Shown in pieces: positions 1 through 6,242 of a DNA stretch of 32,000 bases. The notes under the pieces were generated by a model. It saw only the letters and a program-made list of their open reading frames with translations, made no database searches and was not told the DNA's origin. The translations under genes and the position numbers were made by a program. The first letter of the stretch is position 1. Each line of letters starts with the position of its first letter. The stretch spans positions 1,110,001 to 1,142,000 of the forward strand of contig NZ_CP089976.1 of NCBI RefSeq assembly GCF_022701215.1. The letters run 5' to 3'. The DNA is from Moraxella nasovis (GTDB lineage: Bacteria > Pseudomonadota > Gammaproteobacteria > Pseudomonadales > Moraxellaceae).

Positions 1-3000
1 GGACCATTAAAGGTAGCTGTACCAGTCGTGGTTAGGTTTTTAAACTCAACATTGTCTTTAGTGGCAAAGGTGAATTTACCAGCATCTTGGACAATTTTGA
101 TGTTTTTACCAGCATCATAAGTGATAACATCATCAGCATTGATGAACTCACCTTCACTTTGCTCATTTTCAGTAGCTTTAGTAGGTAATGCTTTACCTGT
201 TTTTAAGAAATCTATTGCTTGCTCTTTTGTAATAACAGGTCTGTTACTTTCAAACTCACCACCTTCAGACTTCGTTGCTTTAGCAATAAAGCTTGAGTTA
301 TCAGCAGCTTTAGATAATTTTTCTACTGTCGTATCTAACTGACCCTTAGTAATCGCATCACCAGCTTCTGTACCATCTTTGATGTTTTTGATTTGACCGT
401 CTTTGGTAATGGTTAAACGTGTGTCTTTTTCGCCTTTTTTAGGAGCTTCACCCACTTTGATTTCATTGGTCACTTCAAGGTCTTTGGTGGTTGTTTTACC
501 ATCAACAGTTTGATCGCCTTTAACATGACTGTTACCATCAACAGTTTGATCACCACCTATAGTTTGGTTACCTTTAACATCTTGGTTACCAATGATTTGG
601 TTATCACCATATTGTTTGGTATTACCAATTTGCGTGGTATCACCTACTTGAGTGGTGTTGCCAGTATGAGCAATATCACCTTTGATGTTTTGACCTTTGT
701 TGAAGGTAGCAGTGTCGTTAAATGTAGCTTTACCATCTACAGTTTGGTTGCCACCTACTGTTTGGTTGCCTTCAACTGCTTGGTGACCATAAAGATGGTT
801 ATCACCATATTGTTTGGTGTTGCCAAACTGGGTGGTGTTACCTGTATGGAATATTTCACCATTGACGTTTTGACCTTTGTTGAAGGTAGCAGTGTCGTTA
901 AATGTAGCTTTACCATCTACAGTTTGGTTGCCACCTACTGTTTGGTTGCCTTCAACTGCTTGGTGACCATAAAGATGGTTATCACCATATTGTTTGGTGT
1001 TGCCAAACTGGGTGGTGTTACCTGTATGGAATATTTCACCATTGACGTTTTGACCTTTGTTAAAATGAGCAGGACCATTAAAGGTAGCTGTACCAGTCGT
1101 GGTTAGGTTTTTAAACTCAACATTGTCTTTAGTGGCAAAGGTGAATTTACCAGCATCTTGGACAATTTTGATGTTTTTACCAGCATCATAAGTGATAACA
1201 TCATCAGCATTGATGAACTCACCTTCACTTTGCTCATTTTCAGTAGCTTTAGTAGGTAATGCTTTACCTGTTTTTAAGAAATCTATTGCTTGCTCTTTTG
1301 TAATAACAGGTCTGTTACTTTCAAACTCACCACCTTCAGACTTCGTTGCTTTAGCAATAAAGCTTGAGTTATCAGCAGCTTTAGATAATTTTTCTACTGT
1401 CGTATCTAACTGACCCTTAGTAATCGCATCACCAGCTTCTGTACCATCTTTGATGTTTTTGATTTGACCGTCTTTGGTAATGGTTAAACGTGTGTCTTTT
1501 TCGCCTTTTTTAGGAGCTTCACCCACTTTGATTTCATTGGTCACTTCAAGGTCTTTGGTGGTTGTTTTACCATCAACAGTTTGATCGCCTTTAACATGAC
1601 TGTTACCATCAACAGTTTGATCACCACCTATAGTTTGGTTACCTTTAACATCTTGGTTACCAATGATTTGGTTATCACCATATTGTTTGGTATTACCAAT
1701 TTGCGTGGTATCACCTACTTGAGTGGTGTTGCCAGTATGAGCAATATCACCTTTGATGTTTTGACCTTTGTTGAAGGTAGCAGTGTCGTTAAATGTAGCT
1801 TTACCATCTACAGTTTGGTTGCCACCTACTGTTTGGTTGCCTTCAACTGCTTGGTGACCATAAAGATGGTTATCACCATATTGTTTGGTGTTGCCAAACT
1901 GGGTGGTGTTACCTGTATGGAATATTTCACCATTGACGTTTTGACCTTTGTTGAAGGTAGCAGTGTCGTTAAATGTAGCTTTACCATCTACAGTTTGGTT
2001 GCCACCTACTGTTTGGTTGCCTTCAACTGCTTGGTGACCATAAAGATGGTTATCACCATATTGTTTGGTGTTGCCAAACTGGGTGGTGTTACCTGTATGG
2101 AATATTTCACCATTGACGTTTTGACCTTTGTTAAAATGAGCAGGACCATTAAAGGTAGCTGTACCAGTCGTGGTTAGGTTTTTAAACTCAACATTGTCTT
2201 TAGTGGCAAAGGTGAATTTACCAGCATCTTGGACAATTTTGATGTTTTTACCAGCATCATAAGTGATAACATCATCAGCATTGATGAACTCACCTTCACT
2301 TTGCTCATTTTCAGTAGCTTTAGTAGGTAATGCTTTACCTGTTTTTAAGAAATCTATTGCTTGCTCTTTTGTAATAACAGGTCTGTTACTTTCAAACTCA
2401 CCACCTTCAGACTTCGTTGCTTTAGCAATAAAGCTTGAGTTATCAGCAGCTTTAGATAATTTTTCTACTGTCGTATCTAACTGACCCTTAGTAATCGCAT
2501 CACCAGCTTCTGTACCATCTTTGATGTTTTTGATTTGACCGTCTTTGGTAATGGTTAAACGTGTGTCTTTTTCGCCTTTTTTAGGAGCTTCACCCACTTT
2601 GATTTCATTGGTCACTTCAAGGTCTTTGGTGGTTGTTTTACCATCAACAGTTTGATCGCCTTTAACATGACTGTTACCATCAACAGTTTGATCACCACCT
2701 ATAGTTTGGTTACCTTTAACATCTTGGTTACCAATGATTTGGTTATCACCATATTGTTTGGTATTACCAATTTGCGTGGTATCACCTACTTGAGTGGTGT
2801 TGCCAGTATGAGCAATATCACCTTTGATGTTTTGACCTTTGTTGAAGGTAGCAGTGTCGTTAAATGTAGCTTTACCATCTACAGTTTGGTTGCCACCTAC
2901 TGTTTGGTTGCCTTCAACTGCTTGGTGACCATAAAGATGGTTATCACCATATTGTTTGGTGTTGCCAAACTGGGTGGTGTTACCTGTATGGAATATTTCA

Positions 3001-6242: not shown

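Follow-up and report, generated by a model that had tools for sequence, protein, structure and literature searches.

A 32,000-nucleotide stretch of Moraxella nasovis DNA (contig NZ_CP089976.1, positions 1,110,001 to 1,142,000 of the forward strand; hereafter the window) raises, in its first 6242 positions, the question of which strand is coding. A list of the open reading frames (ORFs) in this region consists almost entirely of + strand entries, and an earlier note, made from the letters of the DNA and that list, had instead placed a giant adhesin gene on the minus strand, where the list shows no such gene. The analysis reported here favours the minus strand: with a probability of about 0.82, positions 1-6242 carry the 5' part of a chromosomal M. 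nasovis gene whose product is a very large adhesin of type Vc, a trimeric autotransporter, and is probably phase-variable.

Frame and domain architecture of the adhesin gene

When the reverse complement of 1-6242 is translated, no stop interrupts its 2080 codons, in agreement with the earlier claim that the frame set by the ATG at 6242 is open as far as base 1. Over the same interval, the two remaining minus-strand frames contain 89 and 284 stops, and an open frame of 2080 codons would arise by chance with a probability of ~1e-58 given the local base composition. The nearest in-frame TGA is located 19 codons upstream of the ATG, and the ESPR motif of the encoded protein begins at residue 1.

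The hallmarks of a trimeric autotransporter that had been named for this frame are present, the coiled-coil stalk as a prediction, as follows from Pfam matches, matches to structures in the Protein Data Bank (PDB), a repeat spacing of 14 residues, neck motifs and a predicted helix (Table 1). The leader belongs to the ESPR type, with residues 1-44 matching Pfam PF13018 at E 2.3e-13 (50.8 bits against a cut-off of 25). A hydrophobic stretch further downstream ends in AWA at residues 67-69, which agrees with the signal peptidase site proposed before; this candidate site is a reading of the sequence only. The YadA-like head with 14-residue repeats is likewise recovered: YadA_head (PF05658) matches at E 3e-19 in three to five stretches (69-79 bits against a cut-off of 25), and the repeats start exactly 14 residues apart, at 104, 118 and 132 and again at 180, 194, 208, 222, 236 and 250. 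In a PDB sequence search, residues ~159-311 match the heads of AtaA from Acinetobacter sp. Tol5 (3wp8), Burkholderia BpaC (7o23), Yersinia YadA (1p9h) and a Hep_Hag protein of Burkholderia (3s6l). The alignments to the left-handed beta-roll heads of AtaA, BpaC and YadA have E-values of 2e-8 to 2e-6, but it is the head alone that matches in these three proteins, at low identity.

Neck motifs, which join beta domains to coiled coils in trimeric autotransporters, were also part of the earlier description and are found five times in the form DAxxxxQL, once as DAINGSQL at residues 449-456 and four times as DAITKGQL, one per unit of the repeat array described below. The YadA_stalk/neck family (PF05662) matches in five stretches with E 2.9e-27 (95.2 bits against a cut-off of 28.4). 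The DAINGSQL neck is preceded by a GVVSVGG...RQIQNVAAG motif that carries an insertion of ~65 residues, and residues ~428-482 match neck and stalk fragments of SadA and UspA1 in the PDB sequence search. The published neck consensus is DAVNxxQL (PMC7247746).

The coiled-coil stalk is suggested by structure prediction. Residues 611-726 are predicted as one continuous helix with a predicted local distance difference test (pLDDT) score of 80-89 in a single-sequence monomer AlphaFold model (model residues 192-307), and the Pfam Alanine_zipper match over 611-669 reaches 22.4 bits, just below its cut-off of 23.1. A preceding helix at ~453-517 (model residues 34-98) is predicted with low to moderate confidence, again from a single sequence. 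The connector at residues ~501-610 may be FxG-like, and the connector at 727-848 has no family match.

Table 1. Features of the window, with positions in window coordinates
Feature	Position	Strand	Basis
5' part (2080 codons) of trimeric autotransporter adhesin gene	1..6242	-	Open frame and Pfam; 3' end and anchor outside the window
Extended signal peptide, residues 1-69: ESPR motif MNKIYRVVFNKATG, linker, hydrophobic region, cleavage-type site between AWA and VK	6036..6242	-	Pfam ESPR; cleavage site inferred from sequence
G9 homopolymer within the ORF, nt 133-141, codons 45-47 (GGG); candidate slipped-strand ON/OFF switch	6102..6110	-	Sequence, frameshift computation, Hag/MID precedent
YadA-like head, residues ~85-320, 14-residue beta-roll repeats, ~40-residue insertion at 137-175	5283..5990	-	Pfam YadA_head, PDB matches, 14-residue spacing
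Neck with long insertion, residues ~355-456: GVVSVGG ... RQIQNVAAG...DAINGSQL	4875..5180	-	Pfam YadA_stalk (best stretch 434-465), PDB matches, motif
Short helical stalk (~457-500), then beta-rich connector starting NFQGD (~501-610) with degenerate neck-like motif at its end	4413..4874	-	AlphaFold helix
Alanine-rich helical stalk, residues 611-726	4065..4412	-	AlphaFold helix; Pfam Alanine_zipper near cut-off
Beta-rich connector, residues 727-848, leading into the repeat array	3699..4064	-	AlphaFold strands, low to moderate confidence
At least 3.45 tandem copies of a 357-residue (1071-bp) unit: 2628-3698, 1557-2627, 486-1556, partial 1-485	1..3698	-	Periodicity, Pfam neck, AlphaFold solenoid, homologues
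Shine-Dalgarno sequence AGGAG	6251..6255	-	Sequence; spacer of 8 nt to ATG 6242
927-bp intergenic region between the adhesin gene and divergent parE	6243..7169	.	No Rfam match; no Pfam match for 136-residue ORF 6270-6680
12-nt G/C homopolymer, C12 on the adhesin coding strand	6750..6761	.	Sequence; 508 bp upstream of the adhesin ATG, 409 bp upstream of parE
FKBP-type prolyl isomerase, also above the NCBIfam BamJ (beta-barrel-assembly machinery) cut-off (128.5 bits against 100)	15102-15938	+	
Type IV pilus biogenesis genes pilD (peptidase A24), pilC (T2SSF) and pilB (T2SSE ATPase), then coaE	21185-24990	-	
Two tRNA genes between tpiA and rimP-nusA-infB	26332-26413, 26486-26559	+	

The class assignment is further informed by relatives of the protein. 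A search of a 5.8-billion-protein collection with the N-terminal 914 residues returned 6277 relatives at E <= 0.001, and most of the best 120 of these combine ESPR, YadA_head, YadA_stalk and YadA_anchor, as exemplified by Salmonella SadA and by Mannheimia adhesins. Identity to the N-terminal region is 27-33% over 25-56% of the query among the best 120, none of which is a Moraxella protein. SadA, Aggregatibacter EmaA and the YadA-like adhesins of Mannheimia have ESPR, YadA_head and neck/stalk in common with the M. nasovis protein and also possess the anchor. They differ from it in the order and content of their modules, and the repeat unit is not common to them. The NCBIfam model for EmaA (NF033477) gives a partial match at 6.5e-44, with 149.7 bits against a cut-off of 3000, which is far below equivalog level.

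The YadA-type anchor (PF03895) contributes four strands per chain to a trimeric barrel of 12 strands. It is carried by homologues of both the head and the repeat unit of the M. nasovis protein. The anchor is also the sole class-defining part that is conserved by sequence (PMC7247746). On the proposed model, the ESPR-extended signal peptide would take the chain through Sec, and a C-terminal YadA-type anchor, expected outside the window, would trimerise into the 12-strand barrel and export the passenger. The resulting fibre would present the YadA-like beta-roll head at its N-terminal tip, followed by the neck with its insertion, the helical stalk segments and the identical 357-residue modules.

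A tandem array of modules with a predicted hexapeptide solenoid

The array begins at residue 849 and continues to the window edge, and the DNA of positions 1-3686 is periodic at 1071 bp with 0 mismatches in the 2615 positions compared per copy pair. Each unit is itself hierarchical, being composed of approximately three sub-repeats of 180 bp that are 80-96% alike and have an 18-bp period of their own. At the protein level, a unit comprises a neck (residues 31-65), an insert of ~60 residues, GIN-like strands (~126-150) and ~32 hexapeptides of the form xxxxG[N/D] (151-345). The neck of a single copy scores 24 bits with Pfam YadA_stalk, and the ~60-residue insert has no detectable relatives. The GKNIKIVQDAGKFTFATKDNVEF region of the unit aligns to positions 949-1002 of the EmaA profile and to Ursidibacter and Mannheimia adhesins. 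In an AlphaFold model built from an alignment of six sequences, the hexapeptide region forms a regular solenoid with a short strand per six residues and a pLDDT of 80-90.

Homologues of the unit were sought with two strategies. Only five relatives came out of a word-indexed protein search; three belong to [Pasteurella] aerogenes or Ursidibacter, and the YadA anchor is present in four of the five. When 1.84 billion representatives were searched exhaustively with HMMER, 516 matched at E <= 0.001, none below 1e-30, and nearly all of them match the hexapeptide region only. A hidden Markov model made from Pfam-verified anchors detects the YadA-type anchor in 27 of the 150 best of these 516 matches, for instance in proteins of Bergeriella denitrificans and Mannheimia varigena; the others among the 150 contain solenoid domains of the Bactofilin, Hexapep or YdcK type. 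Close parallels are anchored adhesins of [Pasteurella] aerogenes, Ursidibacter sp., B. denitrificans and M. varigena, in which a neck, GIN-like strands (GKNI...) and a G[N/D]QTV-type solenoid as in the unit are followed by the YadA anchor. These proteins are only 29-37% identical to the unit, however, and have neither the ~60-residue insert after the neck nor identical 357-residue tandem copies.

The six-residue periodicity is a feature in common with the solenoids of bactofilins (PF04519), hexapeptide left-handed beta-helices and YdcK, and homologues of the unit match these families. The unit itself has no direct match to PF04519, PF00132 or PF18836 at E <= 1, so that the link is transitive only, via the homologues. 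A further difference is that the M. nasovis unit is predicted to reside in an extracellular trimeric fibre, and not in a cytoskeletal or enzymatic protein. The only PDB sequence match of the unit is a weak one (E 0.012) to CAG1 (9f5x), which we take to be a left-handed beta-helix like that of gamma-carbonic anhydrases, and a Foldseek search with the solenoid model returned generic beta-helices only. According to the AlphaFold model and the homologue searches, the module is a beta-solenoid, and it is encountered repeatedly in the trimeric autotransporters of bacteria from the respiratory tract of animals. In the proposed fibre, each 357-residue module, with its neck, GIN-like strands and hexapeptide beta-solenoid, would lengthen the structure and multiply a putative binding surface, and recombination between the identical 1071-bp repeats would probably vary its length.

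Enzymes with a left-handed beta-helix form trimers of three parallel solenoids, and a comparable arrangement is conceivable here, as is an intertwined helix. A tentative extension of the model, possible though on balance doubtful, is that the hexapeptide solenoid represents an undescribed class of passenger domain, which would add a third type of head-like fold to the known 14-residue beta-roll and beta-prism. It might then be a trimer of three parallel solenoids that M. nasovis uses as a recombination-driven, length- and phase-variable module for tip extension. Two structural types classify most heads of trimeric autotransporters (PMC7247746), and a full-text literature search for trimeric autotransporters with bactofilin or hexapeptide repeats found no description of the solenoid module. 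The G+C content is 38-40% in positions 1-4000 of the window as against 42-49% in the housekeeping flank at 7000-32000; the low value of the array may simply reflect a composition rich in Asn, Lys and Thr.

Homopolymeric tracts and genomic setting

A probable route to phase variation is offered by the G9 tract near the start of the ORF. With G8 or G11 the frame ends in a stop at codon 52-53, with G7 or G10 in one at codon 79-80, whereas G6, G9 and G12 keep the adhesin frame open. Like the open frame, the domain families and the repeats, the tract and its frameshift consequences are demonstrated by the present analysis. Only two G/C homopolymers of at least 7 nt occur in the window and both are located at the 5' end of the adhesin gene; the numbers expected in 32 kb are 0.07 for a run of the G9 type and 0.0009 for a 12-nt run.

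The obvious precedent is Hag/MID of M. catarrhalis, a trimeric autotransporter of ~2000 residues whose translation is switched ON and OFF by a phase-variable tract of G6-G10 early in the ORF (PMC7302503 Table 1; PMC1931440). Both proteins come from the same genus, are very large and have YadA-like degenerate head repeats. Both also possess a long extended signal peptide, the signal sequence of Hag covering residues 1-66 (PMC1931440) and that of the M. nasovis protein 1-69, and a homopolymeric G tract near the ORF start. Of the likeness to Hag/MID that had been remarked on for the leader, the demonstrable part is the poly-G tract towards the 5' end of the ORF. No close orthology is apparent among the best 120 relatives of the N-terminal 914 residues, the best being ~30% identical and none, as noted above, coming from Moraxella. 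Identical 357-residue tandem modules with a hexapeptide solenoid are, in addition, unmentioned for Hag in PMC7302503 and PMC1931440. By analogy with Hag/MID, expression of the adhesin is probably switched ON and OFF by slipped-strand mispairing at the G9 tract. Nine G would correspond to the ON state, and a change by one G would lead to a stop at codon 52 or 80.

The second homopolymer, C12, is found in the intergenic region between the adhesin gene and parE, which presumably holds the adhesin promoter and 5' untranslated region. In uspA1, a G tract upstream of the gene modulates transcription, and the C12 tract might act in a comparable way as a possible second length-variable element. A search of the intergenic region against Rfam found nothing, the 136-residue ORF within it has no Pfam match, and scans of the region for promoters and terminators stayed at background level.

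To the right of the adhesin gene follow the divergently oriented parE, then sstT and genes for a LysR regulator, an aromatic aminotransferase, a mechanosensitive channel, an FKBP isomerase, argA, a patatin-like lipase and recG. Farther right are coaE, pilD-pilC-pilB, tpiA, two tRNA genes, rimP, nusA and infB. The pilD-pilC-pilB genes represent another system related to adhesion, located at a distance of 15 kb from the adhesin gene. Exact matches to M. nasovis proteins UNU72576-UNU72591 (ParE, UNU72576.1), all from one contig, were obtained for 8 of 10 neighbouring proteins. As this contig is a single one of 2,028,236 bp, the adhesin locus is chromosomal.

The gene looks lineage-specific at this parE-adjacent site. 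No relative was found in a scan of genome contigs with the adhesin N-terminus, by tblastn in 80 parE loci (ParE at <=83% identity) or in a scan of metagenome contigs. The region upstream of parE is occupied by helicase and GST genes in a Moraxella sp. metagenome-assembled genome and by GNAT and UPF0227 genes in M. osloensis. Draft contigs of M. caviae and several Psychrobacter break shortly upstream of parE; their ends (M. caviae L001, positions 1-174; Psychrobacter L002, L003 and L005-L008, first ~2 kb) contain no adhesin frame and no Rfam family. The end of L003 resembles the start of an insertion sequence transposase.

Competing explanations and meaning of the locus

Several observations weigh against an intact, functional adhesin gene of this type. 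The anchor lies beyond the window edge, as the ORF runs off base 1, and the account of the M. nasovis protein treats as inferences its anchor, its assembly into trimers, its role in adhesion and any real variation in phase or copy number. The structure models are those of monomers, with the solenoid alignment consisting of six sequences, and the identity and copy number of the 1071-bp repeats may partly come from assembly or polishing. Moreover, searches of the 5.8-billion-protein collection with the N-terminal region and with the repeat unit found no protein that is identical or close to the adhesin, even though 8 of 10 neighbours are present there. The simplest reading of this absence is that the public record probably contains no translated coding sequence for the gene, either because the gene is treated there as a pseudogene or because it has no annotation at all; the frame may also be broken by a stop or frameshift past the window edge.

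The last point bears on an alternative that is judged unlikely, yet survives best: the gene would be a pseudogene or incomplete, with a frame that is intact in the window but broken in its 3' part or lacking the anchor, leaving the strain without a functional adhesin. The discrepancy between the missing record and the recorded neighbours from the same genome would fit such a case, as would the location of the 3' end outside the window and the nature of the sequence, since homopolymers and long identical repeats are prone to assembly errors and, in nature, to mutation. Against decay stand 2080 intact codons with the G9 tract at its ON length, and identical repeats that keep the frame, which argue for recent selection or conversion; the missing record may also have other causes. 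The earlier statement that automated annotation would miscall this region receives partial and only indirect support: a protein record is indeed missing, but the frame may also be truly disrupted beyond the window.

Still less likely is an adhesin gene that is real but owes the copy number and 100% identity of its 1071-bp repeats to repeat collapse, expansion or polishing with ambiguously placed reads. The absence of a single mismatch between copies, when the inner 180-bp sub-repeats differ by 4-12%, and a window that begins within the array are compatible with this explanation. However, the source is a single 2.03-Mb contig, which suggests long reads able to span ~4 kb, and the reading frame is kept across the 1071-bp repeats. 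Long identical tandem repeats are, in general, common in surface adhesins through concerted evolution. The difference between the 1071-bp copies and their inner sub-repeats suggests that the array expanded or underwent gene conversion very recently, or that assembly polishing homogenised the copies.

It is very improbable that the protein is an ESPR-bearing fibre of another type V class, either a classical autotransporter or an exoprotein of two-partner secretion (TPS). ESPR is also found in other type V proteins, the class-defining anchor is outside the window, and the top PDB matches of the solenoid model in Foldseek are TPS domains. These matches are, however, non-significant (E >= 0.016), whereas YadA_head and YadA_stalk/neck, both strongly matched, are passenger domains specific to trimeric autotransporters, and the anchor-bearing homologues of head and repeat unit point in the same direction.

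The ORF list with which the question began can now be explained. It gives, for positions 1-6200, five + strand ORFs of 177-232 residues and one minus-strand ORF of 115 residues in a different frame. The listing rule omits ORFs that run off the source, and the adhesin gene is absent because its frame continues past the window edge; that the gene is 'hidden' results from this rule and is no biological oddity. The claim that the list misses the gene is accurate as to the omission, for this reason. The + strand ORFs (198 residues three times, 232 and 177 residues) have TTG starts and no Pfam match, and the three copies of 198 residues, at 510-1106, 1581-2177 and 2652-3248, are identical and recur because of the 1071-bp period to which their spacing corresponds. 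The + strand ORFs are antisense shadow ORFs, the three identical ones lying opposite the adhesin repeats. That they are instead real genes and the minus-strand frame fortuitous has next to no probability: their display by the ORF lister speaks for them, but the Pfam results on both strands and the chance figure of ~1e-58 refute it.

The M. nasovis adhesin is a real yet ordinary member of the well-known trimeric autotransporter class, and the current understanding of type V secretion is unchanged by it. The gene illustrates how closed-ORF listings, and possibly public annotation too, can overlook the largest gene of a region. For the organism, a nasal Moraxella of sheep that was named only recently, it provides a probable major adhesin of the cell surface. 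The features that deserve specialist attention are the identical 357-residue solenoid modules and the Hag-like G tract. Here, the poly-G switch known from Hag/MID may extend to an apparently non-orthologous adhesin of another Moraxella species, and the module with the hexapeptide solenoid is met repeatedly among the anchored adhesins that Pasteurellaceae, Neisseriaceae and Moraxella of the respiratory tract possess.

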